From a virus (taxonomy: Duplodnaviria; Heunggongvirae; Uroviricota; Caudoviricetes), in IMG/VR virus record IMGVR_UViG_2636415673_000002: a stretch of DNA of 16,446 nt, one strand, 5' to 3'. This document shows, piece by piece, positions 1,864 to 16,446 of the stretch (position 1 is the first letter of the stretch; each line of letters begins with the position of its first letter). The translations under genes were made by a program, and so were the position numbers. The notes under the pieces are model-generated. The model did no database searches. It worked only from the letters and a program-made list of their open reading frames with translations, and was not told the origin of the DNA.

Positions 1864-1867
1864 CTGT

Positions 1868-3637
1868 TCACCATAAAATTTTTATATAACCACCCAAGCC
1901 ACGACCGCCATTGCGGGCAACGTGGTTTACCCAAGTTGATCCTAAACCAGCCCCTCCCCCACCTCCCGCCCCATAACCAGAGCCGGATTGACCATCACTA
2001 TTCGCTCCTCCCAAGCCCCCTTTTCCATAAGGAGTATTTACTGCAGTTTCACCGTTGCTGGAGTATGTTTTGGGAACCTCTCCTACTGAGTTGGCGTGCG
2101 GGGAGTCGATAGTTATGATTTTACCTCCCCCCCCACCAGCACCGCCGGAAGCACTCTGTGAAGAAAAATGTGATGCTCCTCCTGGAATACCTGCTTGCCC
2201 CATTGCATCTTCGGGAATCCATCCCGGACCACGCTCTGGTATCACCTGTGTACCTCCAGCCCCTCCAGCCCCTCCGGACCCAACTGTAAAGGAATACATA
2301 TCTCCGGGTTTAACTGTGAGAGAGGCAATTATCAGTTCACCGGGTTTTCCTGCTCCGCCGCCTAGTCCAAATTTTGGATTCAGCATTGTCGAGCTTCCGG
2401 CGACTGCCCCACCTCCACCGCCCCCTCCGCCGCCTGACATTTCCAGAAGTATTTCTGTCACTCCAGCTGGCACGGTAAATGTTCCATTTGATGTATAGAA
2501 TCGGAATGAGGAATTGTTAATCCTGCTATATGCCTCACAGGCTTTATCATACGCCGCCTTCACCGCGCTCGGTGTCGCCGCCTCCGTCGTACTGTTGCTA
2601 TCCGTCGCGTTATTAAGCTTCACAATCCCTTTTTGCGACAGGGTGCCGTCTGGAACACCCGTAATCTGTCCCCATGGGTGAGTATGGTTTCCCGCAGCCT
2701 TACTATTCGCCAGGTCATATGCCGCCTTCACCGCGCTCGGTGTCGCCGCCTCCGTCGTACTGTTGCTATTGGTCGCGTTATTAAGTTTCACAATCCCTTT
2801 TTGTGTCAGGGTACCGTCAGGAATACTCGTAATCTGTCCCCAGGGGTGCGTATGACTACCCGCAGCCTTACTATTCGCCAGGTCATATGCCGCCTTCACC
2901 GCGCTCGGAGTCGCCGCCTCTGTAGTGCTGTTGCTATTGGTCGCGTTACTAAGCTTCACAATCCCTTTTTGCGTCAGTGTGCCATCTGGTATATCAGTAA
3001 TCTGACTCCAGGTATGACGATGATTTCGAGCCTCAATCAGTGCCGCTTTCACCGCTTTTGGCGTAGCCGCTTTGGTTTCGTCATCACTGTCAGTGGCGTT
3101 ACTCAACTGCGTAAAGCCTTTTTGTGTCAATGTAGCATCAGGGTGGTTAGTCGAATGTTCGTGTTCATCCAGTTGCGAATCGACGTAATCCCGTGTTGCC
3201 AGCACAATACTGGGATCAACGGTGAGTGTTACCGCAGTCGTGTTGGACACTTCCATAATGAGACGAATGCAAACTTGCTTACCGCAGCCGCCGGGTAATA
3301 GCGGTTTATACGACTCCGGGAATTTACCGATAGCAATGAGTTCACCATCGGTATCAAAAACGCCGACTTCACGTATATACCAGCCGCCGATATTTTCGGG
3401 CAGTACAAGTTCCGCAATTAACCAGCTAGGATTATTGGGCGCAACTGTTAATGTATTTAAATCACCGCGCCAGACCTCATGGCGTAATTTAGTTTGACTC
3501 GCCGTGGGTTCATAATATTGCCCACCGCCGTCTCCAACGGCCATCTTTTGCAGATGCAGTTGTTTTTTATCCGCAAGAGCACTGGCAATTTTTGCCATCC
3601 CTCTATTGGTCAGGAGGGTATAAAATTCATTATCCAT
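1868..3637 (-). CDS. Tail fiber protein (P2 gpH-like N-terminal domain, repeat shaft, glycine-rich C-terminal tip)
   Basis: 589 aa. The N-terminal roughly 160 aa carries P2 gpH hallmarks (MAVGDGGG, HEVWR, IAELVLP, ESYKP, ATRDYVD). Residues about 163-370 are 3 to 4 copies of a 56-aa repeat (TLTQKGIVKLSNATNS..TEAATPSAVKAAYDLANSKAAG.HTHPWGQIT), each with an HxH motif. Residues about 376-589 contain multiple polyglycine tracts. ATG at 3637. Confidence 0.85.
   Translation of the reverse strand: MDNEFYTLLTNRGMAKIASALADKKQLHLQKMAVGDGGGQYYEPTASQTKLRHEVWRGDLNTLTVAPNNPSWLIAELVLPENIGGWYIREVGVFDTDGELIAIGKFPESYKPLLPGGCGKQVCIRLIMEVSNTTAVTLTVDPSIVLATRDYVDSQLDEHEHSTNHPDATLTQKGFTQLSNATDSDDETKAATPKAVKAALIEARNHRHTWSQITDIPDGTLTQKGIVKLSNATNSNSTTEAATPSAVKAAYDLANSKAAGSHTHPWGQITSIPDGTLTQKGIVKLNNATNSNSTTEAATPSAVKAAYDLANSKAAGNHTHPWGQITGVPDGTLSQKGIVKLNNATDSNSTTEAATPSAVKAAYDKACEAYSRINNSSFRFYTSNGTFTVPAGVTEILLEMSGGGGGGGGGAVAGSSTMLNPKFGLGGGAGKPGELIIASLTVKPGDMYSFTVGSGGAGGAGGTQVIPERGPGWIPEDAMGQAGIPGGASHFSSQSASGGAGGGGGKIITIDSPHANSVGEVPKTYSSNGETAVNTPYGKGGLGGANSDGQSGSGYGAGGGGGAGLGSTWVNHVARNGGRGLGGYIKILW
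2528..3151 (-). repeat. Tandem 168-bp (56-codon) repeats inside the tail fiber shaft
   Basis: Near-identical DNA copies begin at 2553, 2721 and 2889 (period 168 bp), with a diverged copy near 3042. They encode the phage tail-fiber repeat with HxH motifs. Confidence 0.8.
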
Positions 3638-3639
3638 AA

Positions 3640-4272
3640 TTACTCCGGGTAAATAGATGTAATTTCAAGGCTCCATTGCCCTGTTCCGTAATAGATTGAT
3701 GTGTTTTGCTGTACTTCCCGTATCTGGAAAGGTAAAACCGACGTCAGTTCACCACCATAAAGTGCACAACCAATAACAGGAATAGCACTTTGGTTAATGA
3801 TCCAGACAATTAATGCTTCCAGTTTTGAACGTGTGTTTTTATATTCATGAATGAGTTCTACCAGATTATTGAAAAGGTTTTCATCCATGCCTTTATCCAC
3901 CAGCTCTATATCAACCTTAAAAAAATAAGCCTTCCCCCCATATTCAAACCATTCTGAAATAGTTCCTGGTAATGAGAGTATTTCCAGCACCCGCCGTACC
4001 GCCCAAATCGTTCCTTTATATTTATGCAGCTCAATGGCTTGCTTAATTAGCTCGCGCTTCTCCCGTTCATCGGTGGTAAATAACCAACCTTCCAGCCCCT
4101 GAACGTGAAATTGTTCTGCAAGGGCTGGTAATGCCGAAGCATCAACCAGGTCGACCAGATAAACCATCAACGCCGTAAGATCGAGTTGGGCAAAACGCTC
4201 GGCGGCGATATTTGCCAGAATCGAAAAACGCTCATCGCTGGCAAGCGGCGGCGGTGGCAGCAATTTATCCAT
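3640..4272 (-). CDS. Baseplate/tail protein I (P2 gpI-like)
   Basis: 210-aa ORF between the J-like gene and the fiber gene. Start overlaps the J stop by 8 nt, and the fiber ATG follows its stop with a 2-nt gap. Size and position match P2 gpI. Confidence 0.75.
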   Translation of the reverse strand: MDKLLPPPPLASDERFSILANIAAERFAQLDLTALMVYLVDLVDASALPALAEQFHVQGLEGWLFTTDEREKRELIKQAIELHKYKGTIWAVRRVLEILSLPGTISEWFEYGGKAYFFKVDIELVDKGMDENLFNNLVELIHEYKNTRSKLEALIVWIINQSAIPVIGCALYGGELTSVLPFQIREVQQNTSIYYGTGQWSLEITSIYPE

Positions 4273-5380
4273 CGCTAACTCCGGCGATCGTTACGTCTAT
4301 TGCAGTGCATTCCGCCCATTCATGCGCCTGCAAAATACGTTTTGTAGGCAAGTTCAGCACAACGTCATAGACGCCATCGACCTGTAACACTTTGATTATC
4401 TGGTTTGGCACAATGTCCTGCCCCAGATGTTTCTGCCGCTGTTGCGTCCAGAGGCTAATCGCTTTACGCGCCGCAGCCAGAGTTGTCTCCTGATCGGCGG
4501 TGGTAAACAGCGTTAGCTGCGCACGGATCTCATACGGCACTCGAAGAGCGCATTTCGCACTCACTTTGTCGGTCAGCGGACGTTTTTTCTCCTTGCTAAC
4601 CTCCTGTTCGATTTGCGCGAGCAGTTCTATTCCCGGCAGTCCGTTCAGGGTTAGCGGGTAGATCTCCACGCAGCCTTCTGGCAATCCCTCGTCCGGCCCC
4701 AGTACTGCAACGTCAATAATCGACTGGCTTACGGAAAGCGTATGAAAGCGGTAGGCACCATAGCTGCCCGCATTACTAAAGCTTTCTGGTGCCAGTTGGA
4801 TACGCTGGCGCAATGCGTCATCGCTCTCTTCACCGCAGCCGCCCGTTGACGCAGTCAGGTTGATTACGTTGATGTCATAATGACCAATCCTGTCGACCAG
4901 AGCGCTAATTTGTGCAGGCTGCCAGCCGTTACCCTGTTCACCTGCTGCGAGGCTGGTGGCAGGAACGGCGATATGCAAACTCCTGGCCGGGAGCAGAACA
5001 TCTTCATCGGTGGCGAACATCACGCTATCAGAGGCACTGGCCCGCGTCCCCTGGGGAATCAGGATATTGCTGGTATACGCACTGACAACCGAAAACTGCA
5101 ACGTCGTTTTTGCTGACTGCGCAGGCAAACGATGAACGCCCACCAGCTCCCCTAAATAATCCAGCATTGGCGCGCGGGAATACGCGACCAGGTTCTGTTT
5201 CGCCGCTTCCTGAATGGCGATGCGTACAAGGTTTTCACGATAGGCAAAAAGGTCAATCAGCAACCGCTCGGCCTGTGCCGGGTAGAGCTTTTTGCCGCTG
5301 GCATCTTCGTATTGCGCAATCATCTCGCTGGTAATTTGCGCAGGATCGCGTTCAATAAAATTGGGTTCGGCTATCGCCAT
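4265..5380 (-). CDS. Baseplate J-like protein (P2 gpJ / T4 gp6-like wedge)
   Basis: 371-aa ORF with a GGAGG Shine-Dalgarno upstream of the ATG at 5380. Positioned between the W-like and I-like genes as in P2. Confidence 0.8.
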   Translation of the reverse strand: MAIAEPNFIERDPAQITSEMIAQYEDASGKKLYPAQAERLLIDLFAYRENLVRIAIQEAAKQNLVAYSRAPMLDYLGELVGVHRLPAQSAKTTLQFSVVSAYTSNILIPQGTRASASDSVMFATDEDVLLPARSLHIAVPATSLAAGEQGNGWQPAQISALVDRIGHYDINVINLTASTGGCGEESDDALRQRIQLAPESFSNAGSYGAYRFHTLSVSQSIIDVAVLGPDEGLPEGCVEIYPLTLNGLPGIELLAQIEQEVSKEKKRPLTDKVSAKCALRVPYEIRAQLTLFTTADQETTLAAARKAISLWTQQRQKHLGQDIVPNQIIKVLQVDGVYDVVLNLPTKRILQAHEWAECTAIDVTIAGVSDG

Positions 5381-5730
5381 AACACCTCCGTTGAGTTGAT
5401 TACGCCGTCAGCGGCGCGCCATTGCACACGTAACGTCAGATGTTCACCGTCGATTACAGGTGTCACCTTCAGCAACCGGCAGCGCGGTTCCCACTGGCGG
5501 ATGGCCTCTACCGACTCCCGTACCACATGCGGGATCGCCCGCTCGATGGGATAATCGATGTAGTGCCACAAATTGCTGCCAAACAGCGGTCTGTGGGGAT
5601 CACTGCCGCGCGGTGTACGCAGAATGATGTGTATTGCCTGGTGAATATCATCCAGTCCGCAGACGTATTCTTCAGGCCGCTGCAAGGCCGGTTGCCAGTG
5701 CAGCGTTGAGGGGCGTGTTTTTGTGTTCAT
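5371..5730 (-). CDS. Baseplate protein W (GPW/gp25-like)
   Basis: 119-aa ORF containing a gpW/gp25-type motif (IHIILRTPRGSDPHRPLFGSNL). Lies immediately upstream of the J-like gene with a 10-nt overlap. The RBS is weak. Confidence 0.75.
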   Translation of the reverse strand: MNTKTRPSTLHWQPALQRPEEYVCGLDDIHQAIHIILRTPRGSDPHRPLFGSNLWHYIDYPIERAIPHVVRESVEAIRQWEPRCRLLKVTPVIDGEHLTLRVQWRAADGVINSTEVLWR

Positions 5731-5789
5731 GAGGGTATTTTCGCCCTGACCGGGCTGTGGAGATATTAAAGCGATTTAGAAAACTGATT

Positions 5790-5825
5790 GATTAAAAAGA
5801 GAAAACCCGCTATCAGGCGGGTTAA
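5790..5825 (-). terminator. Intrinsic terminator-like hairpin between the spike (V) and W genes
   Basis: Minus-strand RNA reads AACCCGC-CUGAUA-GCGGGUU followed by UUCUCUUUUUAAUC. The 7-bp GC-rich stem (plus 5804-5810 and 5817-5823) starts 5 nt after the V stop codon. Confidence 0.5.
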
Positions 5826-5828
5826 AAG

Positions 5829-6530
5829 TCAGTGTGAATGGTGGTTGGAGTTGCCACCGCTGTCCTGCAATGCGCCGCTGGCCTGAACGTTGCCGATCAC
5901 GTTGACATTGCCGGTTATCGTGGCGGCGTTACCGATGCCTCCACTTCCTGCCATCCCACCAAGCCAGGTGAGTTTTTTCATCACCGTGACGTTGCCGGTA
6001 AAGGTACTGAGCGGTGCGTCTACCGTTACAGCCATCGCTTTAACATCGACCTTACTGGCTTCAATGCTGACGTCGGTGGCTTTCACATCAACAGTGTCGG
6101 AAGTCACGGTGACGTGTTGGGCTTTAACCTCAACGTTGGGCGATATCAGGCTGGTACGGTCGATAACCTCAATCACGATTTTTTCGATACCACCGTTAAT
6201 CGTAAGCTGGTGGGTGCTGCGGTCATATTCAAACGCTGCGCCATCGGAAAACTGGACATAGCGTTTGTCGCGCGATGCTACTGGCGCGGTATCTACCGTT
6301 GAATATACTGCGCCCAGCACCACGCCATCTTCACCGTTATCATCCAGCAGAACCTCCACCTGCTCTCCCATGTCCGGTAGCCAGTAGTCTTTATTGTCCT
6401 GGGAATTGCGTTGAAGTACCGCAAGCCAGTTGCTCTTCAGATTGTCACACTCTGGAAGCGTGACTCGCACCCGAACGCTGGTTTCGTCAATATCGCTGAT
6501 AATCCCCGTTTGCCGGGTTACTCCTTTCAT
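5829..6530 (-). CDS. Baseplate spike protein (P2 gpV-like)
   Basis: 233-aa ORF with a strong AGGAGG RBS. N-terminal OB-fold-like region followed by a repetitive beta-helix-like segment (VxVxA repeats, e.g. VDVKATDVSIEASKVDVKAMAVTVDA) and a His-rich C-terminus (NHHSH), consistent with metal-binding spike apexes described for P2 gpV. Confidence 0.8.
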   Translation of the reverse strand: MKGVTRQTGIISDIDETSVRVRVTLPECDNLKSNWLAVLQRNSQDNKDYWLPDMGEQVEVLLDDNGEDGVVLGAVYSTVDTAPVASRDKRYVQFSDGAAFEYDRSTHQLTINGGIEKIVIEVIDRTSLISPNVEVKAQHVTVTSDTVDVKATDVSIEASKVDVKAMAVTVDAPLSTFTGNVTVMKKLTWLGGMAGSGGIGNAATITGNVNVIGNVQASGALQDSGGNSNHHSH

Positions 6531-6539
6531 ATTTCCTCC

Positions 6540-7580
6540 TTACTGGCTGGTCGCTGGCCCGCGTGACACGTCGATTTCAGTGGTATAGCCGCTGCGCACA
6601 AAACTGTGAGTAGATTTATCAATCAGCCACTGACCGGAAAGCACGCCAAAATCGGTCAGTTCAATTTTATTGCCCGCCGTCAGTTCCGGGCAGCCCATCA
6701 TTGTGAGCGTTCCGGTTTGCTGATATTCGTTGTGGCTGTCGAGTGCAGCGTTGGCCTTTGCCTGTGCTGCGCCAATGTCCGTCGCCCGACTGTTCAGTTT
6801 TAGCGTGTCGGCACTGGTGCCGACTCCACGGGCAGACGGTTTTTGCTGGCTGTCGTGGGTGTAGATAACCAGTTCTTTTTTCTTACTATTTTGATGCTGT
6901 ACGGTGGCGTTTTTGTAGATACGGTTAATGGTATCTTTGAAGGTGAAATGCGAAACGTCTTTGCGGTCGATCGTTTTTACCGGTGCCAGGCAGCGCAGCG
7001 TGGGTAAATGTGAAAAAATCAGCTCTTTTGTCGTCACTTTTACGGCATAACCATATTCACTGGCCAGACGTTTGAGAAATCCAACATCGGTTTCACCATA
7101 CTGCGTTACCCGGTCGATGGTGAGCGGCTCGATTTTGCCCACCAGTTTCAGACCGTGCGTTTGCGCGATACGGCTGGCGATAGCCGAAAGCGTCGTCTCT
7201 TCAAAGCCCTGGCTGTTACGCGTGCGTAGCGCCTGATTGACGGAAGTGGCGATGCCATCAATATTTACCGTAGAAGGTGGCGATGAAATATCAATTTTAT
7301 CAATAATATACTGACCACAATCGAGCAGCTTTTCCCCCTGATAACCCATATGCAGCGCCAGCGTATCGCCTTTGCCGGGATACCACTCTTTTATCCAGCG
7401 TCCATCGGTGTCATCCAGTGTAATCGCGATGGTATCCGACTCGTTTTTAATACTGTCCTGGTAACTGATGCTGGTGACATAAGGCGTGATGTCATAAGTG
7501 ATATCTTTATGCCCATACCAGAGGGTAAAAATGGGCGTGAGTGTTGCAAAGACGCCGCCAGTTACGCTTATCTCAGCCAT
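6540..7580 (-). CDS. Tail hub protein (P2 gpD-like, late control gene D family)
   Basis: 346-aa ORF immediately upstream of the spike gene. Size and position match P2 gpD. Confidence 0.75.
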   Translation of the reverse strand: MAEISVTGGVFATLTPIFTLWYGHKDITYDITPYVTSISYQDSIKNESDTIAITLDDTDGRWIKEWYPGKGDTLALHMGYQGEKLLDCGQYIIDKIDISSPPSTVNIDGIATSVNQALRTRNSQGFEETTLSAIASRIAQTHGLKLVGKIEPLTIDRVTQYGETDVGFLKRLASEYGYAVKVTTKELIFSHLPTLRCLAPVKTIDRKDVSHFTFKDTINRIYKNATVQHQNSKKKELVIYTHDSQQKPSARGVGTSADTLKLNSRATDIGAAQAKANAALDSHNEYQQTGTLTMMGCPELTAGNKIELTDFGVLSGQWLIDKSTHSFVRSGYTTEIDVSRGPATSQ

Positions 7581-7777
7581 GGTGGGATCTCCGATAAGGT
7601 TTTATTGACGGAAATGACCGGAATGATGAGCTGAATACCGGAAGGCAGTACCGGATAAATGGCGACATGTGGATTGGCTGCGATAATGCGTTCATAAGCC
7701 AGTGCATCGCCGTAGTAATGCCAGGCCAGGTTATCCCAGCGTTCGCCATCGGTGGTGATATGTTCAAGGTATCGCAT
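7568..7777 (-). CDS. Tail protein X (P2 gpX-like, LysM-like)
   Basis: 69-aa ORF with the gpX-like pattern (W-x-YYG ... AANP ... VLPSG..L.IP). Start overlaps the gpU-like stop, and its 3' end overlaps the D-like start. Confidence 0.7.
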   Translation of the reverse strand: MRYLEHITTDGERWDNLAWHYYGDALAYERIIAANPHVAIYPVLPSGIQLIIPVISVNKTLSEIPPWLR

Positions 7778-8730
7778 TACCAGCTCCTCGTAATGGTCGC
7801 GGCAGCAAGCTGGCTCACTGCGGGAGTGGTTTGTTGTACCGTTGTTCGTGCCTGATCAACCAACGTTGCGGCTTTATCAAACGTCGCTTCGGCGATGTTG
7901 CTGGCAATGTCGTCGAAAAGTGTCTGAGCATGGTCAACCAGCGTACTGGCGTCATTGGCGCAGTCCCGTATACCTGGCATGTTACCCAGTAAAGCTTTAA
8001 TCTGAGCCGACAACGCTTTTGGGAGTCCTGCCAGCATTTGCAGATCCATTGGCTGTTTAAACAGGGTTTCGATGGCGTCGATAGTCTTTTTCAACGACGT
8101 AATTATCTTTTCACACTTTTCTTTTAACGCTTTGGCCTCTTTAATCAGTGCTTTCACTTTTGCCACTGTTTTTTTAATATCTTCAATGGTTTGCGCCAGT
8201 TCATCGAGCATCTCTTTGGCTTTGCGCATACCTTCTTCAATGGCGTTCAATATCTGATACAACCAGGACTCCACCTTATTCGGAAAATCGCTCGCCTTTT
8301 CCTCGATATTAGGCTCCTGGGTGGTAATTGCCGGGGGCAGCAGTGGGTTTTTCGGATCGCCGGTATACTCCTGGAGCGACATTGTTCCGCTTTGGGCAAT
8401 GACATTGCCCCAGGGATCGGTGTGCTGGTGAGTGGCGGTTAACTCTGTAATTACAAACCAGCCGCGATAATCTCCGTTGCCAAACACCAGCGCCATTGCT
8501 TTGTGAGCAAGCATGGCTTCACGCAGTCGATTCAGCTCTGTTGTGGGTTGGCAAAACTGGCTGTGCAGGGAAAATTCCAGCGCCAGCATATCCAGCTTAT
8601 CGCCAATAAACTGCACGCCGGGTTTGCCTTCTATACGGGCATGTGTGGCGTAATCCACGCCCATTGTGCTTTTAAAGCCGTCCCAGAATGTGACAACTTT
8701 AAATTCAATCTCTCCTAAAACGGCATACAT
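7777..8730 (-). CDS. gpU-like tail protein with long C-terminal coiled-coil extension
   Basis: 317 aa. The N-terminal roughly 130 aa resemble P2 gpU-type tail proteins. The C-terminal roughly 180 aa are Lys/Glu/Ala-rich heptad-like sequence (KAKEMLDELAQTIEDIKKTVAKVKALIKEAKALKEKCEKI), predicted coiled coil. ATGA overlap with the tape measure stop. Confidence 0.55.
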   Translation of the reverse strand: MYAVLGEIEFKVVTFWDGFKSTMGVDYATHARIEGKPGVQFIGDKLDMLALEFSLHSQFCQPTTELNRLREAMLAHKAMALVFGNGDYRGWFVITELTATHQHTDPWGNVIAQSGTMSLQEYTGDPKNPLLPPAITTQEPNIEEKASDFPNKVESWLYQILNAIEEGMRKAKEMLDELAQTIEDIKKTVAKVKALIKEAKALKEKCEKIITSLKKTIDAIETLFKQPMDLQMLAGLPKALSAQIKALLGNMPGIRDCANDASTLVDHAQTLFDDIASNIAEATFDKAATLVDQARTTVQQTTPAVSQLAAATITRSW

Positions 8731-11081
8731 CAGGCATACCCCCGGCGCTGCTGCTGCGCCATTACATCGTTAATCATTCTTTCCAGTTCGCGTTTACTCA
8801 TCGTCAACACGTTCTGAATCTCTTTAGTGGTGTTTTGTCCGTTACCCTGCACGGTAATTTGTGGCGAAAAATTCACCTGGACTTTTCCCGGGGAACGGGA
8901 GGGTAGCGTCGCCGGTTTGGTTACGGATTTACCAGGTAAAGAGGCCGACGCGGGTTTTGCCGATGACGGCGTAGCCGTTTTGCCGGATGGCGCGAGTTGT
9001 TTGCCCACCGGCAGCGTTAAAATCGCACCGGCAACGCCTGGAACAACGGTCGCGGGGGAGACTGATGCGGTATTAGCCGTGCCTGTAACAGCCGCAGCCG
9101 ATGCTTCTGTGCTGATACCCATTGTGGCTTTTAGCCAGTCTGGCATGGCGTTTTTGACCTGATCAATAATGCCTTTCAGTGCGGGGAAAGCATTCATTAT
9201 GCCGTCGGCCAGGCTACCCAGTATATTGCTGCCGAACTCGCTAAAACTCGCAGGCATCTCAACACCAAACCAATTCATCACATCGGAAAAGGCGCTATAG
9301 AACAACTCCAGCGGTGACCAGTCGAGAATCAACCGACAAATTCCTGCAATGCCGCCGTCAAAGGCCGTGGTGATACGTTGCCAGATGGTCGAAAAGAACC
9401 TGGAGATAGGTTCCCAGTTGCGATAAATCAGATAAGCCGCGCCCGCAATCGCAGTGATGACCAGACCAATGGGATTCATCAATAACACCCGGCCTAGCGA
9501 GAGAACGGTTCGACCAAACAGTTTCAATGCTCCGATCAGGCCACGACCAAGCAGTTGCGTTAGCCATTTTGCGCCGCCACCCAATGACTTAACCGCCGAT
9601 AGCACTTTACTTGCCGCGCCGCCGAGGGCCAGACTTGCCCTGACTTTCAGGAAGATATCGACCAGACGAATAAACGGCGAGGCGATGAGGTTCGCGCCCA
9701 GCTTTAAAACATTAAGCGCACCGTTAAACAGCCAAATCGCCCCGACGATTTTCGCAATGTTTTGCACCAGCGCCGGATGTTCGCGTAGCCAGGCACTGAA
9801 CTGGCGAATAACCGGCGCAAGGCTTTGTGCCAGCTCGCCAATCGCCGGCATAAGCTGCAAGCCAATGCTGAGCCATAAATCATTTAACGCCAGTTGTAAC
9901 GCTTTAGTCTGTTCAATGGGCGAGGCCATTTGCGCAGAAAAGTCAGCGTTAATCAGATTCTTGCTGGTAGTTTGCATGGCAGAGGCTTTTAACTGGCGAT
10001 ATTCCTCCATATTCGCCAGCATAGGTGCCAGGAATTCCACCGTTTGCGCATCGCCGAACATTTCGCCCAGATTAAATTGCGCCACCATCGATTGCAGCGC
10101 AGTGCTGCGAGCAGATAAATCTTCAATCTGCATAGTGCGTTTGAAGGTGTCGAGGATCGCCGGATTCATCTTCTCAAGCTGCATTTGCACGATATGAGTC
10201 ATGGCTTCGCTAACACTCATACCGTTTTGCTGATGTTCAAGCAGAGAGCCTTGCAAATCGACGCCCTGGCTGGCGAACCAGCTATCGGTTTTTTTCGAAA
10301 AGGTGGTTTGCAGAAAGTGGTCAAAATTCTCAGCCGCCGCACTGGCGCTGGCCCCGTTTTTCATGGCGATCTGCATGGCGGCAGTCAGTTCAGTCATACC
10401 TTCCAGACCCTGAGCGCCGGTTTTACCTGCAAATTTGTCTATCCACTGCGTTTGCTCGGCAACGGCAGGCCCACCGCTTTTGCTAATGCCGTACATCATG
10501 TTTTGCGCGGCGTGGAAATTTTCTGGCGCAATATTCAGTCGATCATGGGTTGCGAGCGCGGCATTCGCCCATGTTTCAGCACTTTCGCGCGTGGCGGTGG
10601 CAGCTTTGGCGATCTCCGGCATATAACGGTTGAGATCCTGTATCGACGACAAATTGCCTTCGATCAGCGTTTGGGCTGCGTTCTGTAAGGTGGTCTGATG
10701 CTGGTTAAAATCCATGCTCCAGTCGCGCAGATTAAGGCTGAGCGTCTCGCGGGTTGTATCATTCATCCCACCTTTGGTCGCCATATTGACCATGTTGTCC
10801 TGGAACTCATACGGCAACTTCCAATCGGGGGCTTCAACATTGAATACTTTGCTAAATTGCCCGGCAAATGTGTGGGTTTTCTCCATCAGATTAGCGCGGC
10901 TGCGGCTATTTTCCTCCAGGCGGAGAGCAGAATCGGCAAGTTGCTGCGTTAGTTTGATTACTGTCGCTTGCTGAGAAGAGAGAGCTAACAAAGTTCTGGC
11001 GTTGAGTGAGCCGTAACGGGCTATTGCCTGCGTCAACGTCTCATTACGCGCCTGAAGCTGGGTAATAATATCGTTGGCCAA
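8730..11081 (-). CDS. Tail tape measure protein
   Basis: 783-aa ORF, Ala/Gln/Leu-rich and alpha-helical, with hydrophobic glycine-rich segments in the C-terminal half. Located between the chaperone and gpU-like genes. The first start-type codon after the upstream in-frame stop is TTG at 11081, so the exact start is uncertain. Confidence 0.8.
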   Translation of the reverse strand: MANDIITQLQARNETLTQAIARYGSLNARTLLALSSQQATVIKLTQQLADSALRLEENSRSRANLMEKTHTFAGQFSKVFNVEAPDWKLPYEFQDNMVNMATKGGMNDTTRETLSLNLRDWSMDFNQHQTTLQNAAQTLIEGNLSSIQDLNRYMPEIAKAATATRESAETWANAALATHDRLNIAPENFHAAQNMMYGISKSGGPAVAEQTQWIDKFAGKTGAQGLEGMTELTAAMQIAMKNGASASAAAENFDHFLQTTFSKKTDSWFASQGVDLQGSLLEHQQNGMSVSEAMTHIVQMQLEKMNPAILDTFKRTMQIEDLSARSTALQSMVAQFNLGEMFGDAQTVEFLAPMLANMEEYRQLKASAMQTTSKNLINADFSAQMASPIEQTKALQLALNDLWLSIGLQLMPAIGELAQSLAPVIRQFSAWLREHPALVQNIAKIVGAIWLFNGALNVLKLGANLIASPFIRLVDIFLKVRASLALGGAASKVLSAVKSLGGGAKWLTQLLGRGLIGALKLFGRTVLSLGRVLLMNPIGLVITAIAGAAYLIYRNWEPISRFFSTIWQRITTAFDGGIAGICRLILDWSPLELFYSAFSDVMNWFGVEMPASFSEFGSNILGSLADGIMNAFPALKGIIDQVKNAMPDWLKATMGISTEASAAAVTGTANTASVSPATVVPGVAGAILTLPVGKQLAPSGKTATPSSAKPASASLPGKSVTKPATLPSRSPGKVQVNFSPQITVQGNGQNTTKEIQNVLTMSKRELERMINDVMAQQQRRGYA

Positions 11082-11169
11082 AATTGTTTCTCTTATAGAT
11101 TGGTGATGGCCCGCTGGTTAGTTTTCTGAAAAATGGGCTGGGAAGAAATAAACCTGGCGGGCTTTAAAG

Positions 11170-11196
11170 GACTCGCAGACATCAGGTCTGCGAGTC
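11170..11196 (-). other. Perfect 11-bp stem-loop in the chaperone/tape-measure intergenic region
   Basis: gactcgcagac-atcag-gtctgcgagtc. On the minus RNA it is followed by CUUUAAAG, which is only weakly U-rich. Candidate attenuator, RNA stability element or frameshift-associated structure. Confidence 0.45.
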
Positions 11197-11269
11197 ATAT
11201 TCGATCTTTATTTGAGCGCTGGCTTCATCCAGCCAGTTGCTAAAGTCATCGACGGTAAGGGCGTCTATC

Positions 11270-11587
11270 TCACTGGGCGGAAAGCGAAACCATCTCGCCA
11301 GTAACGCCATTGCCTGCCATAGCAGGGGAGGATTCTGTAACCACGGTAAGCATGGATTGAAATCGTTTCTGCAATGCCTGGTAATCCAGCAAATCCATTT
11401 CAGCTAAATCTTCTGGCACCAGTCCGGTCATTGCCGCCATTAGCGGTTCATCCCACTCTTCTGGCTTTTCGCTGATCCGGCGCGCGTTGCGCATATCTTT
11501 TACTTTCAGGCGACGTAATTGCAGAGTGTTAATTACGTCTCCCGCCGCTGAAGTAAACGGGAACTGTAAGATATAATGCTCTTTCAT
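11270..11587 (-). CDS. Tail assembly chaperone (P2 gpE-like)
   Basis: 105-aa acidic ORF between the tube and tape measure genes, the canonical position of the E/E-prime (G/GT) chaperone. AAGGA RBS 7 nt upstream of the ATG. Confidence 0.6.
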   Translation of the reverse strand: MKEHYILQFPFTSAAGDVINTLQLRRLKVKDMRNARRISEKPEEWDEPLMAAMTGLVPEDLAEMDLLDYQALQKRFQSMLTVVTESSPAMAGNGVTGEMVSLSAQ

Positions 11588-11613
11588 TTTGTATCCTTAT
11601 TTATTTTGCGAAG

Positions 11614-11633
11614 TTCGGGGCCGTAGCCCCGAA
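11614..11633 (-). other. Stem-loop between tube and chaperone genes
   Basis: ttcggggc-cgta-gccccgaa (8-bp stem) directly after the tube stop codon. No U-tract follows on the minus RNA, so it is not a classical terminator. Possible RNA processing or stability element. Confidence 0.35.
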
Positions 11634-11637
11634 TAAC

Positions 11638-12162
11638 TTAGCCACCGATGTTATTGCGATAGGTACTTAATTGATCCACGCCGTTAACCCGAAAAATATT
11701 CGCCATATAATCAAGTTCAAGCAGCGTTTCACCATCGACCACTTGTTTAATATAAGTGCAACCAAAGGCGCTGCTGAATTCCGGGTTTTCATTTTGTTTA
11801 AATGTTCCCAGTGGATTCTTTTTAAACATGACAGTCAAATGAGTGACTAACGCTAATTGATTCGCTTTCCCCTGGGAGTTATAGCAATCAATACTGGAGC
11901 GGCACTGTAATGCTACCGCCTGCCACGGGTTTGCCGTTTTACGCATGACGTCCTGATAAAAGGAGTTCCATTTAATTTCCCCTTCCAGTTTATCGAACCC
12001 TGCCGGGAGTTCGATTTTGCCGACCATGCCCAGTGCTTTATGCTCCTGCATAATTAAACTGACATCCGGCAATTTAATTTCGGTTGCACGACCTAAAAGG
12101 TTATTACCATCGAGATAAATATTTGCGTTGGTAATACGGTTAATTTGAATTTTTCCAGCCAT
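11638..12162 (-). CDS. Tail tube protein (P2 FII-like)
   Basis: 174 aa. The C-terminus (ELDYMANIFRVNGVDQLSTYRNNIGG) matches the conserved VNGVD...R.NIG end of P2 FII tube proteins. TAATG overlap with the sheath stop. Confidence 0.85.
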   Translation of the reverse strand: MAGKIQINRITNANIYLDGNNLLGRATEIKLPDVSLIMQEHKALGMVGKIELPAGFDKLEGEIKWNSFYQDVMRKTANPWQAVALQCRSSIDCYNSQGKANQLALVTHLTVMFKKNPLGTFKQNENPEFSSAFGCTYIKQVVDGETLLELDYMANIFRVNGVDQLSTYRNNIGG

Positions 12163-13583
12163 TAGCTATTGCTCTCCAGAGAGACTAAATATTCAGAAGT
12201 AATTTCAGTTTCAAACGTCAGACGTTCCAGCGGCGGCGGCGGGGTGAATTTATAGCTAAGCAATAAATGCCCAGCGCTGAGTTCAGTCGGTGAATTTCGC
12301 GCCGGATCGTACCAGCACTCAAAGCCAAGCAGTGCGCCGTCGGCAATCAGCTTACGGCCCCAGGTATTTACTGATTCGGTCAGGGCATCAATCAGCGCCT
12401 GATTAATCGGCATATCAATATACTGCTGACTGAAATAACGGATTGACTCATTAATTACATCGCCTGTCCGGCGGACGTTTTCAAAGTTACGCATATGGGT
12501 CACGGTAGGCCATGCCGCTGTGCGGTTGCCCCACAAGCGCAGACCAGAGCCGTAACTATTGAAAATAGTGGTAATGCCGTTTTCGTTGAGCTGATTCACT
12601 TCGCTTTGAGGATCATCAATCATTGCGGAAAGCGAACGTTCAATACCGGTAATACCCTGAATTTCCTGGTTTGAGTTGCTCCACCAGAAACCTTTTTCGA
12701 GGTCTACTTTGGCACGTAGCCCGGCAGCGCGCGAAGAGAGCGGTTCGAGAACTTCCTGGTTAGTGATGCCATCGTAAACTTTGACGTGTGGGTAACATAA
12801 ACGCGCACGATCAGAGCTGGTATTGAAGTTGATAGCGCCTTGCGAACTGCGTCCTGCCAATACCTGCTGGAATGTCGTCCCAATCGGGGCATCAATGTAG
12901 GTAATCGCACCGAGTTTTTCCGCTTGTGCAATCAGCTCGGTAGTTACTGATTTTTGCGTACAGAACACGGGAGCAAGCAGGATTTTGGCGTAGAAACCAT
13001 ACAGGTTATAGGTGTCCTGAAGGAGTTTCATCCCTGTGCGGTCGCCTGCGGTATTTACGGCACCGATAATATCGGCTGCGGTGACCTTTGTAGGATCAAC
13101 ATAGGTATACGTCGCGTAAACCTTCGCCCCTGCCGGGATTTCAGTTCCGGTACGGGTTATAACGCCATCTGCGGCATTAACATTGTAAGATGTATTTTTG
13201 TACGTAGTGGAACTGGTACCTGGTCTTAATATTACTGAACTTACTCCCGGATGAGCTAATTTAGCTTTATCGGCACTATTGAACGTAATGGTTTCATTGG
13301 CAACATGCAGTCCATGTTTTACCGGATCCAGCACATTAATTACCACCACCGTACCGGCACCGTGGTCATAAATCGCCTTCAGCGCCTGTGGGATCGTAAA
13401 GTTAGCCTGAGTTGAGCCAAACTGCGCAGCATCGCTTTCAGAAAGGCATAATGTTGGTTTATTTACCGGACCACAGGGGGCCGTACCGATTAAAGCGATG
13501 ACGGCGGATTTTACCGCTTTAACGGGACGCTGGCCGGTTTCAATTTCAATGGTTTCTACACCGTGCAGATAATTAGCTGCCAT
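12162..13583 (-). CDS. Contractile tail sheath protein (P2 FI-like)
   Basis: About 473 aa with sheath hallmarks (N-terminal YLHGVET, GLRAKVD.EKG, LWGNRT, C-terminal YKFTPPPPLERLT). The track ORF begins at a TTG at 13589. The ATG at 13583 with an upstream GGAGAGGA RBS is the more likely start. Confidence 0.85.
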   Translation of the reverse strand: MAANYLHGVETIEIETGQRPVKAVKSAVIALIGTAPCGPVNKPTLCLSESDAAQFGSTQANFTIPQALKAIYDHGAGTVVVINVLDPVKHGLHVANETITFNSADKAKLAHPGVSSVILRPGTSSTTYKNTSYNVNAADGVITRTGTEIPAGAKVYATYTYVDPTKVTAADIIGAVNTAGDRTGMKLLQDTYNLYGFYAKILLAPVFCTQKSVTTELIAQAEKLGAITYIDAPIGTTFQQVLAGRSSQGAINFNTSSDRARLCYPHVKVYDGITNQEVLEPLSSRAAGLRAKVDLEKGFWWSNSNQEIQGITGIERSLSAMIDDPQSEVNQLNENGITTIFNSYGSGLRLWGNRTAAWPTVTHMRNFENVRRTGDVINESIRYFSQQYIDMPINQALIDALTESVNTWGRKLIADGALLGFECWYDPARNSPTELSAGHLLLSYKFTPPPPLERLTFETEITSEYLVSLESNS

Positions 13584-13770
13584 GTACAATTTCCTCTCCG
13601 TTATTTTGTTCTTCCTGAGTGATGACAGAAGTCAGGTGATTGCGGGCAATCATGGTCATGACCCACTCGTTGTCTTCTGGCAGATCAATTTCACTGTTCG
13701 GCCACAATAAGATTTCTTGTCCGTCGGCAAGGGTGACGCCGCTTGCCGGGCCGTTGTAGATGTATTTCAT
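13573..13770 (-). CDS. Small hypothetical protein of the tail module
   Basis: 65-aa ORF with a GAGGAAA RBS. ATGA overlap with the upstream gene, and its 3' end overlaps the sheath start. No recognizable motif. Confidence 0.4.
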   Translation of the reverse strand: MKYIYNGPASGVTLADGQEILLWPNSEIDLPEDNEWVMTMIARNHLTSVITQEEQNNGEEIVHGS

Positions 13771-14222
13771 TCAGTTTCCTCGTAATTAACTTCCGTAAGT
13801 AGGGGAAGATCCGTGTTTTCCTGTTCAGCGATAAACAGCGAGCTGGTCGCCATTTCCAGGATGTAGCGGCAGAAACCGCCGCTCTCACCCGTATTAATTT
13901 CTTTTTCAAGCCAAAGAAGACGATCGCAATCAGGAAGCTGAAGGCCACCCAATGCGCTGCGTATGCGGTCCAGTGCGTTTAACGCATCACAATTTTTGCC
14001 AACAATAACGGTGGCGGTTAAGCGGAGCGTTTGCTGTTGCACGAGAGCATCACTGCTTTCAGGCATGGCAAATAGAGAACCGCTATAATTAATAATCACT
14101 GTAACTTGCTGCGTCTGCGGAATATATTTATGGGTATCAACCGATGAAATAGATACATCCATTTCGGGATTCTGTTCACGTAATCTGGTCACAACAGAAT
14201 TCATTACTGATAAAATTTCCAT
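13767..14222 (-). CDS. Putative tail completion / terminator-like protein
   Basis: 151-aa ORF with an AAGGAA RBS, immediately upstream of the sheath gene, where tail completion proteins of P2 gpR/gpS size are commonly encoded. Call is from position and size only. Confidence 0.4.
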   Translation of the reverse strand: MEILSVMNSVVTRLREQNPEMDVSISSVDTHKYIPQTQQVTVIINYSGSLFAMPESSDALVQQQTLRLTATVIVGKNCDALNALDRIRSALGGLQLPDCDRLLWLEKEINTGESGGFCRYILEMATSSLFIAEQENTDLPLLTEVNYEETE

Positions 14223-14339
14223 ATAGGGTGTTCCTTAATTATCGCTGATTCGTTAACGCTCACTTCGTTATCGTTGAAATGTATTCTGACGTAATGAAGG
14301 TGGAGAATCTTTTAATCTGCTTTAGAGAAAAAATTGAAT

Positions 14340-14654
14340 TTAATAGCTACCGCGTTGTAATAGCTCTATTTTGCTATATAAGGCATCCAGCTTTGCTTCT
14401 AATACTGCCTGGCCACGAAGATAATCTTCTCTGCGGACATAATGCAGCGGAAGCTCGGCACGAAATTCGAGAAATTCTCTTTCCAGTTTCGACCAACTTG
14501 TTTCTGATTCCCGGCGCGCGTTTTCCAGAGATTCAAAACGCTCATTAAGTCTTTTTTCAATTTGCGCTAACAGCAATTTTCCGGCAGCAAACATTAATCC
14601 AACGAAGGAAAGCATAAGGGAGATCACTTCCCAAAAATCGATACTGAGTTTCAT
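14340..14654 (-). CDS. Membrane-anchored coiled-coil protein, possible i-spanin (Rz-like)
   Basis: 104 aa with an N-terminal TM helix (FWEVISLMLSFVGLMFAAGKLLL) followed by a charged coiled-coil-like region. Directly downstream of the endolysin gene, with a GAGGGG RBS. Confidence 0.45.
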   Translation of the reverse strand: MKLSIDFWEVISLMLSFVGLMFAAGKLLLAQIEKRLNERFESLENARRESETSWSKLEREFLEFRAELPLHYVRREDYLRGQAVLEAKLDALYSKIELLQRGSY

Positions 14655-14666
14655 CGGCCCCTCTGA

Positions 14667-15272
14667 TTAATGAAGACAGCTTGCCTGCCCCCAGAGTAGG
14701 TAGCGGGCGGCATGTTGATAGAGGATCATCTTCGGATAGCGACGATTTTCTCGCCAGTTCGTGGCGCTGCGCCCGGCGTTGACTCGCTCGACATGACCAA
14801 ACCAGCTAGTGGCATCTAACCCTTTGGATGCAGCCAGTTTTTTATCCCGGTTAACCCATCCCTGACCGCCGTTATAGGCGCTAAGGGTAAACGCCATACG
14901 CTGACAATCATTTTTCGCTGAGATGTTTTTCCACAAATGCTGGTCATATTGCACCAGTGCGCGAATCGCCCAGGTTGGGTTATAGGGCTTATTTTCACGT
15001 AGCTGCGGATACAACAGGCTTATCCATGTCGCTGTGGCAGGCATAAATTGCGCCATGCCTTGTGCGCCAACGGGGGAACGTACCATTGGCTGCCAGGCGG
15101 ACTCCTGGTGTAATTGCCCGGCAAAGTCGGCCACTGGGGCGTTCAGTCCCCAGACTTCTCGAGCGGTACGAATTAGTTCGTTTCGCCATGCCAGAGAGGC
15201 TCGCGGCGGTTCAGAGGCGTTAAGAGGGAAAAGAACGAAAATAATCATAGACGCGATATATTTCAGCCACAT
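14667..15272 (-). CDS. Endolysin: lytic transglycosylase (SLT domain) with N-terminal signal peptide or SAR domain
   Basis: SLT-type motifs (QESAW and GAQGMAQFMP). Hydrophobic N-terminus MWLKYIASMIIFVLFPLNA. ATG at 15272 lies 2 nt after the holin stop codon, and a GTG start one codon upstream would overlap that stop. The longer ORF to 15365 would overlap the holin gene by about 90 nt and is rejected. Confidence 0.75.
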   Translation of the reverse strand: MWLKYIASMIIFVLFPLNASEPPRASLAWRNELIRTAREVWGLNAPVADFAGQLHQESAWQPMVRSPVGAQGMAQFMPATATWISLLYPQLRENKPYNPTWAIRALVQYDQHLWKNISAKNDCQRMAFTLSAYNGGQGWVNRDKKLAASKGLDATSWFGHVERVNAGRSATNWRENRRYPKMILYQHAARYLLWGQASCLH

Positions 15273-15274
15273 CA

Positions 15275-15562
15275 CTATAGCCCTAAGGCGACGGAAAGAC
15301 AGACGGCGGCAACGATGATGGCGCGGCGAATCATTGCCGCCGCGCAGCAACGCGGTTCCTTCCATGGGCTAAAAGAGTCAGGCCGTGCCCATGGGAACAA
15401 ACTGCGATCGAGCCAGTATCCCAGCACCGCGGAAAGCGAAACCAGGCTTAGTTTATAAATGACGACCGGGATCTGTGCTGAAGAGGTCCAGCCGATCACG
15501 ACAAACAGCGCGACGGAAGCGACCAGCCAACCGGAAAGCCGGGGAAGAGTGACTTTTTTCAT
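15275..15562 (-). CDS. Putative holin (small multi-TM membrane protein)
   Basis: 95 aa with 2-3 predicted TM segments. First gene of the operon with an AGGAG RBS 7 nt upstream of the ATG. Translationally coupled to the endolysin gene. Confidence 0.5.
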   Translation of the reverse strand: MKKVTLPRLSGWLVASVALFVVIGWTSSAQIPVVIYKLSLVSLSAVLGYWLDRSLFPWARPDSFSPWKEPRCCAAAMIRRAIIVAAVCLSVALGL

Positions 15563-15858
15563 ACGGTATCTCCTGATAAGTGAGCGTTTAGTGTCGCCAG
15601 AACCCGCCAGTGAAGAATGAAAAAAGCTTTAATAAATAACTTTAAAAAATAGATTCTCTATAAATGAACATGCCCGCTAATAAATCCACTCAGCAATTAA
15701 AGAGCAAAAGGTGACCTCGCGAATAAGCGCGTCATTATGCAGGGAAAAGATGATGGTGAATCGTAGGAATAGTCAGTAGTTATTTGATTTTTAAAGTTTG
15801 TTTAAGAAAGTCAGCGACTGTGAGGGAAACGATCTTTTTACACTACAGGTAAAAATAA

Positions 15859-15878
15859 TACTGTATGTGCATACAGTA
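15859..15878. promoter_or_regulatory. LexA (SOS) box
   Basis: TACTGTATGTGCATACAGTA compared with the E. coli LexA consensus TACTGTATATATATACAGTA: both 8-nt arms are perfect (CTGT-N8-ACAG), with mismatches only in the central 4 bp. It lies in the AT-rich divergent region between the Mor-like gene and the lysis/tail operon, flanked by TTTACA hexamers on both strands (15837-15842 on +, 15882-15887 on -). Confidence 0.7.
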
Positions 15879-15899
15879 TCGTGTAAAATGATACTCCTG

Positions 15900-15930
15900 T
15901 TGACAAGAAACATAACGCAAACAATATATT
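15900..15930 (+). promoter_or_regulatory. Candidate sigma-70 promoter for the Mor-like gene
   Basis: TTGACA at 15900-15905 followed 17-19 bp later by an AATATA/TATATT -10-like element, about 170 bp upstream of the Mor-like ATG. Prediction by eye only. Confidence 0.3.
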
Positions 15931-16098
15931 TATTTAGTGAATTTATGCGTTCATTAATATTAAGAATTTATATTTCTGGTGATTGTTTATTTGTTTGTTG
16001 AATGTATTGAGTAGCAGTAATGACAACTGCTTAGCGTATATCCGTGGTTTTACACGCATCGGGTCTTATTCAGGATGCAAGATATATGGAGATGAAAA

Positions 16099-16446
16099 AT
16101 GATACGAAAATCAAAAGAGATGGTCCGGACACCGGAGATCATTAACGACCTGGCTTTTCATGCATCGCAAGTTCTGATTGAAAGCATCAATCTCGACAGT
16201 TCATCGGCGGAAAATGTGGGCTTTGCCATTGCCGACCGAATGATGCGCAACTGGGGCGGGCAAAGCATTTATTTCCCAAAAGGGATCTCCGGACGGGCGT
16301 CGGAGCGTGACTACCAAATCTATAGCGAGTGCGATGGGCGCAACTACGCCGAATTAGCGAAGAAATATAATCTGACGCTGCAATGGATTTATAAGATAGT
16401 GAAACGCGTACATGCGGAAAAGCAACAGCGCCGCAGTAATTCGTAA
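16099..16446 (+). CDS. Mor/C-family transcriptional activator (phage Mu middle/late activator family)
   Basis: 115 aa. The C-terminal region (NWGGQSIYFPKGISGRASERDYQIYSECDGRNYAELAKKYNLTLQWIYKIVKR) matches the Mor family pattern as recalled from Mu Mor (GGQ.IY.P.G ... F.GRN..EL...Y..T...IYK). GGAG RBS 7 nt upstream. Divergent from the lysis/tail operon. Confidence 0.75.
   Translation: MIRKSKEMVRTPEIINDLAFHASQVLIESINLDSSSAENVGFAIADRMMRNWGGQSIYFPKGISGRASERDYQIYSECDGRNYAELAKKYNLTLQWIYKIVKRVHAEKQQRRSNS

Follow-up and report, generated by a model that had tools for sequence, protein, structure and literature searches.

Given that a gene of the Mu-type Mor/C activator family adjoins P2-like tail genes in a Caudoviricetes record (IMG/VR record IMGVR_UViG_2636415673_000002; 16,446 nt, this whole stretch being called the window here), we questioned whether the pairing is a new combination and which genes the activator controls. 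The gene, mor (16099..16446, + strand), ends the window, and an original prediction made from the letters alone had read it as the sole regulator of a P2-type lysis-tail operon, unusual both in its partner genes and in its orientation. The window is 100% identical to an Escherichia coli chromosome, in which an island extends from a gene for a 151-aa protein (806) to mor (16446). Our main explanation, to which we assign a probability of roughly 0.7, is that mor encodes a functional activator, the only regulator left in a Bcepmuvirus-derived tail-lysis island beside lysC, and that it would connect the host protein LexA to the tail and lysis genes (LexA to Mor to tail/lysis genes).

We assessed the identity of the mor product against profiles, structures and homologs. 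The open reading frame (ORF) of 115 aa is complete, with an ATG start and a TAA stop that finishes on the window's last base, and its product is identical to RefSeq WP_000619865.1, annotated as 'Mor transcription activator family protein'. A hidden Markov model check places it in the family first proposed for it: Pfam PF08765 is matched with 129.5 bits (cut-off 24.9; E=6.3e-38) over positions 2-103 of its 107. The product also matches the PHROG 'late transcriptional activator' (E=1.9e-35) and two solved structures in the PDB, 1RR7 for Mu Mor (E=5.6e-8) and 9L0X for Mu C (E=7e-5). The family-invariant residues GG..Y.P.G...RD...G.N..EL...Y are all present (columns G53, G54, Y58, P60, G62, R70, D71, G80, N82, E85, L86 and Y98 when aligned with Mu Mor, Mu C and BcepMu gp01), as are the GG..Y.P.G linker and a C-terminal helix-turn-helix. 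Between genera, synonymous sites of mor are saturated and the nonsynonymous distance (dN) is only 0.02-0.13, with a ratio to the synonymous distance (dN/dS) of 0.02-0.06 where computable, implying that mor has been maintained by selection. The product is a genuine, and probably functional, Mor/C-family activator, for which dimeric operator binding and activation of sigma-70 transcription are predicted. No second regulator is encoded between the flanking host genes according to RefSeq annotation, in agreement with the claim that mor is the only one.

The question of why a Mu-type activator stands beside such tail genes was addressed through gene order and identity. The tail proteins match P2-named Pfam families (GpU, Tail_P2_I, tube FII, tail X, GPD, V, W and J), and to that extent the P2-type description stood; in order and sequence, however, the genes are of Bcepmuvirus type. 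The island order gp37-gp38-sheath-tube-tail assembly chaperone-tape measure-U-X-D-V-W-J-I-fiber is that of BcepMu, not P2. The sheath is 70-74% identical to those of BcepMu, phiE255, PhiKM and KP12, whereas every Peduovirus match is below 60% (best full-length hits), and gp37 shares 39% identity with that of PhiKM. For Mor itself the closest phage homolog is BcepMu gp01 (49.5% identity); the C-type activators of the coliphage Bcepmuviruses PhiKM and KP12 are 44-45% identical (tblastn), and Mu Mor and Mu C only 25% each (global alignment). The recognition helix of the island Mor (LTLQWIYKIVKR) is nearly that of BcepMu gp01 (VSLQWIYKIIKA; LQWIYKI), whereas Mu Mor and C differ there.

Orientation follows the same pattern. 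In BcepMu and PhiKM, mor is the final gene of a leftward early operon and the holin gene is the first of a rightward late operon (holin-head-tail), so that removing the genes between them would leave a divergent mor/holin pair exactly as in the island, where mor (+ strand) and the holin gene (15275..15562, - strand) face away from each other across a 536-bp intergenic region. The divergence from the lysis-tail operon was thus correctly read, but it is not anomalous, and neither is the pairing: a Mor homolog is native to Bcepmuvirus (BcepMu gp01) and lies opposite the holin-head-tail operon, so both features are probably ancestral to this phage group. Lack of an Ogr-type regulator is expected from Bcepmuvirus ancestry; no Ogr/Delta-type zinc-finger gene is annotated in the island, and 20 scanned ORFs gave no phage zinc-finger hit above threshold, although no dedicated Ogr scan was made. 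A fresh joining of a Mu-type regulator to a P2-type (Ogr-style) tail operon, served by a single Mor-dependent late promoter in 15563-15858, would fit the P2-named Pfam hits, the missing Ogr-like annotation and a conserved element of Mor geometry in that interval (described below). It is nevertheless largely refuted by BcepMu/PhiKM synteny and identity, since order, sequence and accessory genes are of Bcepmuvirus type and Mor is native and divergent there, and we consider it very improbable. Mor next to a P2-like tail therefore appears to be an ancestral Bcepmuvirus feature, not a new combination.

We then considered what the island retains of such a phage. The island is bounded by lysC at one end and by a slipin gene paired with an RlaP-nucleotidyltransferase gene at the other, and within these limits RefSeq annotates neither head genes (capsid, portal, terminase) nor a transposase, an integrase or a repressor; early genes, the transposition ATPase, GemA and Rz/Rz1 are also absent. 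What remains is a headless contractile tail with a lysis cassette, the layout seen in R-type tailocins, and the island is best described from its gene content as a Bcepmuvirus derivative and not a complete phage or prophage. Among complete E. coli genomes it is carried by 197 of 5426; E. coli 2021CK-01784 is one carrier and S. Typhimurium LT2 another, whereas E. coli K-12 lacks it. The same architecture at the same lysC-adjacent site was found in Salmonella (STM4198-STM4219, with a gtrABC insertion), Superficieibacter, Phytobacter, Dryocola, Enterobacter hormaechei and one metagenome contig, and a scan of genome contigs returned only 4 close loci besides Pasteurellaceae Mu-like prophages. The original prediction had seen neither the absence of head, transposase and integrase genes, nor the Bcepmuvirus type of the locus, nor the LexA box at 15859-15878 discussed below.

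An island of this kind could be an inert, decaying prophage remnant, with mor and its boxes surviving as relics that have no present function. In the Salmonella literature the region is mentioned only as a phage remnant carrying gtrABC (PMC7380047), and the missing spanins, together with an insertion sequence in the LexA box of some E. coli and the loss of that box in E. hormaechei, fit the same view. Yet the ORFs are intact across six genera despite saturated synonymous divergence, the dN/dS of mor is as low as given above, and short regulatory boxes are conserved within otherwise unalignable spacers, so that a lack of present function seems improbable.

Given the retention of mor, its likely operators were sought upstream of the late genes by comparison among genera. 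The probable Mor operator is TAA-N6-TTAA.A., followed by 20 nt and a -10 hexamer, with no -35. Upstream of gp37, alignment of seven genera shows a single sharply conserved block, the canonical box CTAAAGCAGATTAAAAGA (14308..14325, - strand), with a predicted -10 (CAGAAT, 14283..14288, - strand) 20 nt after it. An xAxAAT hexamer occurs at this spacing in 6/7 genera, and BcepMu and PhiKM are spaced alike. The box pattern CTAAAGCnGATTAAAAGA is found once in the window, upstream of gp37 (0.04 expected by chance), and twice in GC-rich BcepMu (0.01 expected), directly before gene 21 (holin) and gene 32 (head protease). The gp37 box agrees with the BcepMu gene-21 box at 17/18 positions and with the BcepMu gene-32 and PhiKM head-promoter boxes at 16/18; PhiKM has the canonical box before its head operon and a TTAA-CGCGCT-TTAAAAT version before its holin gene. 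In E. hormaechei the gp37 box is degraded (TTAGAAG). A second box, CTAAATCGCTTTAATAT (5763..5779, - strand), emerged from comparison of the gap between V and W, in which BcepMu, PhiKM, the E. coli island and Salmonella share the same element (..CTTTAATATC; ..TAA-N6-TTAATATC) as a TTAATAT variant with identical spacing. Its predicted -10 (GAAAAT, 5737..5742, - strand) again lies 20 nt after the box, 6 nt before the ATG of W. Both boxes are outside 15563-15858, the interval to which a single late promoter had been assigned.

The geometry of these sites is that expected for the activator family. In Mor/C-dependent promoters the -35 is replaced by an imperfect dyad of 16 bp (two 5-bp arms around a 6-bp spacer) centered at -43.5 (PMC4390567, PMC2582627). 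In all the boxes described, phage and island alike, 20 nt separate the 7-nt right half from a -10-like hexamer (xAxxxT; A at -11, T at -7), and with the -10 set to -12..-7 the nnTAA-N6-TTAnn dyad of the gp37 and W promoters is centered at -42.5. No TTGACA-like hexamer lies 16-18 nt upstream of the -10 in the gp37 (CAGAAT) or W (GAAAAT) promoter, or in a third candidate before the holin gene (GACACT). At the position of the Mor operator of Mu Pm, placed from the literature description (PMC4390567, PMC2582627) and not from annotation, AGTAAAGCCGGTTAAT shares 13/18 bases with the BcepMu box, and the island box likewise agrees with it at 13/18. The nearly identical boxes of the island and BcepMu parallel the near-same recognition helices of their activators. 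From the shared boxes and the Mor/C geometry we conclude that the gp37 and W promoters are probably Mor-dependent, and that they would correspond to the late promoters of the head and baseplate genes in Bcepmuvirus and, in Mu, to PI and PP.

The W promoter has a further peculiarity. In the E. coli island, Salmonella, BcepMu and PhiKM alike, the -10 ends 6 nt before the W ATG with no Shine-Dalgarno sequence between them (window 5728-5742; locus L002 ~30800-30825, L028 ~17250-17274 and L003, from Salmonella, ~5287-5300), implying a conserved leaderless or near-leaderless W mRNA. A terminator-like hairpin after V (AACCCGC-ctgata-GCGGGTT plus a T run; 5796..5823, - strand) is predicted from the sequence. 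At the Salmonella V-W junction (L003 5350-5410 and 8510-8560) the gtrABC O-antigen glucosylation operon is inserted, flanked by the direct repeat GGCCCGGTAAGCGCAGAAGCGCCACCGGGCAAA, and the W box is intact.

Whether Mor also drives the lysis genes was evaluated in the spacer between holin and mor. The most conserved non-coding block of this spacer, block b (15612..15654, - strand), lies upstream of the holin gene and has a mean column identity of at least 82% across 7 genera, with unalignable flanks. It contains a degenerate Mor-type box, TTAAAGCTTTTTTCATT (15616..15632, - strand), in which the left half-site and the spacing are canonical and the right half is TTTC instead of TTAA. Under a promoter grammar of TAA-N6-TTA (at most 1 mismatch), 4 nt, 19-21 nt and a -10 with A-11 and T-7, this element (15632..15616) was the sole holin-directed match kept in position in 7/7 genera. 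It stands 20 nt upstream of a putative holin-promoter -10 (GACACT, 15590..15595, - strand) that has no -35, reads GAYACT or CATACT in 7/7 genera and keeps an invariant spacing to block b; transcription is predicted to start ~21 nt before the holin ATG. By hand alignment, TTAAAGCTTTTTTCATT agrees with the PhiKM holin-promoter box at 12/17 positions. Block b also holds a full TAA-N6-TTA dyad, 13 bp upstream of this box, with no -10 at the matching distance, and the block is degraded in E. hormaechei.

The proposal of a Mor promoter in 15563-15858 fared unevenly. A TTAA half-box 20 nt upstream of a GAYACT -10, with no -35, is present there in 7/7 genera, and the search of the interval for conserved Mor/C dyads returned the degenerate TTAA-N6-TTTC element (one core mismatch, noncanonical right flank) in all of them; but the canonical boxes lie elsewhere and no holin-directed matrix hit was obtained. 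A weight matrix built on the canonical box found nothing above 6 bits in the holin-mor spacer of 5/7 genera, including E. coli and Salmonella, and its weak hits in Dryocola (9.8 bits) and E. hormaechei (6.9 and 6.7 bits) all point toward mor. A Mor-dependent holin promoter at 15616-15632/15590-15595 is plausible though atypical, and we would give it even odds.

How mor itself might be switched on is suggested by a predicted LexA (SOS) box, TACTGTATGTGCATACAGTA (15859..15878), in the same spacer. The SOS-box consensus is TACTG(TA)5CAGTA, to which this near-consensus site conforms at 17/20 positions and the Salmonella box at 19/20. It is the only CTGT-N8-ACAG in the window (0.13 expected by chance). 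Boxes occupy the equivalent place in 8/9 orthologous loci, with arms intact and the spacer varying, and in a 95.5%-identical E. coli variant the changes within the box are confined to spacer bases and go toward the consensus. BcepMu has no such box, and the only one in PhiKM is inside a head gene. Promoter-like sites are arranged back to back here. Toward the holin gene, a predicted sigma-70 promoter (TTTACA-16 nt-TACAGT, 15860..15887, - strand) has its -10 inside the LexA box; it scores 9/12, falls in the same alignment column in 5/7 genera and is the only promoter-like site reported by a scan of 15400-16200. Toward mor, TGTATA-16-TAAAAT scores 8/12 and occurs in 4 genera, its -35 and spacer being covered by the LexA box and its predicted -10 (TAAAAT) lying at 15884..15889 (+ strand). 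The sequence GTGTAAAATG is kept in 5/7 genera, with one substitution (GTAAAGTG) in Dryocola. One LexA dimer could block both promoter-like sites.

In ~11 of the 197 E. coli genomes, an ISL3-like element, ISEc53, carrying a ClbS/DfsB-family gene, is inserted at the center of the LexA box (15865-15872). The insertion has an 8-bp target duplication, ATGTGCAT, and splits the half-sites (L030, E. coli MS 21-1, ~2700-4590), so these strains would be natural LexA-box knock-outs of the island.

The arrangement of these sites can be read in more than one way. LexA might drive the lysis genes through the leftward TTTACA-16-TACAGT, with Mor acting only at gp37 and W, no Mor promoter in the spacer, and block b binding something else. 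The leftward promoter is indeed the best sigma-70 match and is kept in 5/7 genera, the Dryocola substitution alters TAAAAT and spares TTTACA, and the canonical-box matrix has no holin-directed hit in the spacer. Transcript boundaries bear on the same point: an intrinsic-terminator-like hairpin (AAATCCCCG...CGGGGATTTTTT) between the gp25 homolog and the gp37 promoter is present in Salmonella, Phytobacter and both Superficieibacter loci, which would make lysis and tail genes separate units, although it is missing in E. coli (14326-14342; alignment A3 columns 90-135), Dryocola and E. hormaechei, and in E. coli read-through from the lysis genes may be possible. This reading would leave mor without an identified input if LexA controlled only lysis, it needs a 290-nt leader, and the half box and GAYACT -10, held at exactly 20 nt in 7/7 genera, fit a promoter there; we regard it as rather unlikely, and it overlaps the LexA-to-Mor model more than it excludes it.

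Alternatively, mor might be constitutive or answer to another host signal, with the LexA box incidental to it. Salmonella, Superficieibacter and E. hormaechei have predicted TATAAT-type promoters on the mor side of the LexA box, 80-150 bp before the gene, and a conserved block at 15997-16008 also lies upstream of mor. These promoters do not keep their positions in E. coli, Phytobacter or Dryocola, however, and this arrangement would mean constitutive expression of the tail, and possibly the lysis, genes; it has little probability in our judgment. LexA control of mor is the most economical reading, given that the gp37 and W promoters probably need Mor and that a terminator precedes the gp37 promoter in most genera.

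Several observations weigh against this model of LexA acting through Mor on the tail and lysis genes. LexA may gate mor, a long leftward transcript into holin, or both, the leftward site scoring 9/12 against 8/12 for the rightward one, and it might drive the lysis genes rather than mor. In E. hormaechei (L008 9496-10000) the LexA box and the flanking TTTACA/TAAAAT element are lost and the ORFs are called intact. The holin-proximal element is just half a box and went undetected by the canonical-box matrix. Two conserved blocks have no explanation in the model: block c, the palindrome TTAAAGTTTGTTTAA (TTAA-N7-TTAA, 15791..15805), which is perfect or near-perfect in 5/7 genera and has a spacing of N7, unlike the N6 of Mor boxes; and GTTGAATGTATT at 15997-16008, ~95 nt upstream of the mor ATG, which is kept in 7/7 genera and has no convincing promoter. 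Absence of Rz/Rz1 spanin genes may compromise lysis by the island, as the 104-aa membrane protein after the endolysin is a gp25 homolog and not Rz. Finally, no account of the function or regulation of the island, or of a tailocin there, was found in the open-access literature searched, the coverage of which was incomplete.

Block c gives a weak mor-directed match to a Mor-type promoter in 4/7 genera, and one might speculate that mor activates its own transcription upstream of the LexA box. Blocks b and c also have an exact 11-mer, TTTTTAAAGTT, in common, inverted and 139 nt apart.

Other interpretations of the spacer were tried and rejected. An ATAAT-GACGCG-CTTAT dyad (15723-15738, with a TTTAAT -10 downstream) was dismissed as a Mor/C site because it is not conserved even in Salmonella, the Mor of which is ~90% identical to that of the island. 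Pairing of blocks b (15627-15650) and c (15787-15810) in a leader RNA was likewise set aside, as Rfam gave no match and folding of the 291-nt leader does not surpass that of its shuffles (z=+1.04; 170/200 fold at least as well). Block b does not work as a plain sigma-70 promoter or a shifted canonical box, since the aligned sequences have no conserved -10 at the required distance, and an IHF-site reading of blocks b and c misfits WATCAANNNNTTR by inspection. The idea that mor has a conserved sigma-70 promoter of its own between the LexA box and its start was discarded too, the predicted sites lacking positional conservation.

Sequence comparison shows Mor membership, Bcepmuvirus ancestry, a headless island at a fixed site, boxes with conserved geometry and a conserved LexA box, and on these a circuit can be proposed. 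In undamaged cells, LexA would sit on the single SOS box in the holin-mor spacer, over the back-to-back promoter-like sites. DNA damage would remove LexA and allow transcription of mor, with a leftward transcript toward holin also possible. A Mor dimer would then bind the TAA-N6-TTAA.A. boxes, ~42-43 bp upstream of the start at promoters with only a -10, and recruit sigma-70 polymerase as Mu Mor/C do. Mor would serve two canonical promoters, those before gp37 and gpW, and with about an even chance also the degenerate one before holin. Tail particles and lysis would result, as from an R-type tailocin-like cassette.

A stronger claim can be framed, which we advance tentatively and at somewhat less than even odds: that several Enterobacteriaceae (a subset of E. 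coli, much of Salmonella, Phytobacter, Dryocola and Superficieibacter) keep under selection a Bcepmuvirus-derived R-type tailocin at lysC, in which a LexA operator replaced the repressor and early operon, and damage acts through Mor on two or three promoters, one of them giving a leaderless gpW mRNA. If so, the locus would represent a LexA-to-Mor tailocin circuit distinct from pyocin PrtR/PrtN, and the long-annotated Salmonella 'phage remnant' STM4198-4219 would have a function. If particles are made, they would be an uncharacterized tailocin of major enteric pathogens under a two-step SOS-to-Mor switch. Mor beside P2-like tail genes is by itself ordinary, as the combination is a defining one for BcepMu-like phages and RefSeq annotation already records it; what is new is a testable regulatory map (LexA box, Mor boxes and three promoters, all predicted) for a little-studied tail island of E. 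coli and Salmonella. From the shared box one can also predict the operator recognized by Mor proteins of the Bcepmuvirus branch.

The remaining genes of the island were assigned from Pfam, PHROGs and RefSeq. The holin (Holin_2-3, E=4e-27; PHROG holin) is 54% identical to the PhiKM holin and is followed on the - strand by an SLT-domain lytic transglycosylase, the endolysin (14667..15272; Pfam SLT, E=1e-14; start per RefSeq), the counterpart of BcepMu gp22, and by the 104-aa membrane protein (14340..14654), a homolog of BcepMu gp25 (46% identity, E=2e-35; PHROG 462). The tail genes gp37, gp38-like (65 aa), sheath, tube, chaperone, tape measure, U, X, D and V occupy 5829..14222, and W, J, I, tail fiber, fiber assembly (DUF4376) and the 151-aa unknown protein 806..5730, all on the - strand. 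The 151-aa protein (806-1261) has no Pfam family, and its only PHROG match is labeled enoyl-CoA hydratase-like (E=4e-58). A + strand gene at 1-792 is the RlaP-family nucleotidyltransferase, the slipin gene lying beyond the window edge. Tail assembly chaperones commonly yield a programmed frameshift product (E/E'-like); a 42-aa ORF (11182-11310) that overlaps the 3' end of the chaperone gene (11270-11587) in another frame, and is gene-called in related loci, fits such a product.

Four short GenBank 'phage' records (OR851641.1, OR851449.1, OR851066.1 and OR845313.1) are fragments of the island (mor, sheath). They are labeled Salmonella phage S.Kent 1-2-1 and Escherichia phage ECO95 1-6-1 (host as written: E. 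coli O157:H7 ATCC 43895). This suggests that island DNA was recovered from induced-phage preparations.

Set against known systems, the island is nearest to Bcepmuvirus. With BcepMu, phiE255, PhiKM and KP12 it shares the tail order, holin, SLT endolysin, gp25 and gp37 homologs, a Mor homolog (44-50% identical) with a near-same recognition helix on the strand opposite the holin-head-tail genes, and late-promoter boxes with 20-nt spacing before the head-operon counterpart and gpW. It differs from them in lacking the transposase, early genes, repressor, GemA, Rz/Rz1, terminase, portal and capsid, in having mor alone beside holin, a degenerate holin-promoter box and a LexA box, and in occupying a fixed chromosomal site across genera, whereas those phages transpose to random sites. 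With P2 and other Peduovirus phages (Ogr/Delta) it has homologous tail protein families in common (FI, FII, E, T, U, X, D, V, W, J, I and H), but no Ogr-like gene is annotated in it, sheath and tube precede the baseplate genes, its promoters are predicted to be of Mor type, and similarity is far below that to Bcepmuvirus.

The resemblance to the Mor/C promoters of Mu (Pm, Plys, PI, PP and Pmom) lies in a -10 without a -35, an imperfect dyad, homology at the level of protein family and fold, and separate late promoters for lysis, head-equivalent and baseplate genes. Mu, however, uses a Mor-then-C cascade where the island has one activator, its activator gene lies upstream of the late genes instead of divergent from them, and its input is a phage early transcript where that of the island is apparently host LexA. 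R-type pyocins and other tailocins (PrtR/PrtN, SOS-inducible) likewise combine a headless contractile tail with their own holin and endolysin, a fixed locus, a dedicated activator and DNA damage as input, the last of these being a prediction for the island. They are of P2-like ancestry with PrtN as activator, whereas the island is of apparent Bcepmuvirus ancestry with an activator of the Mor family; and where pyocins rely on the LexA-like repressor PrtR, the island is predicted to use LexA itself on a canonical SOS box.

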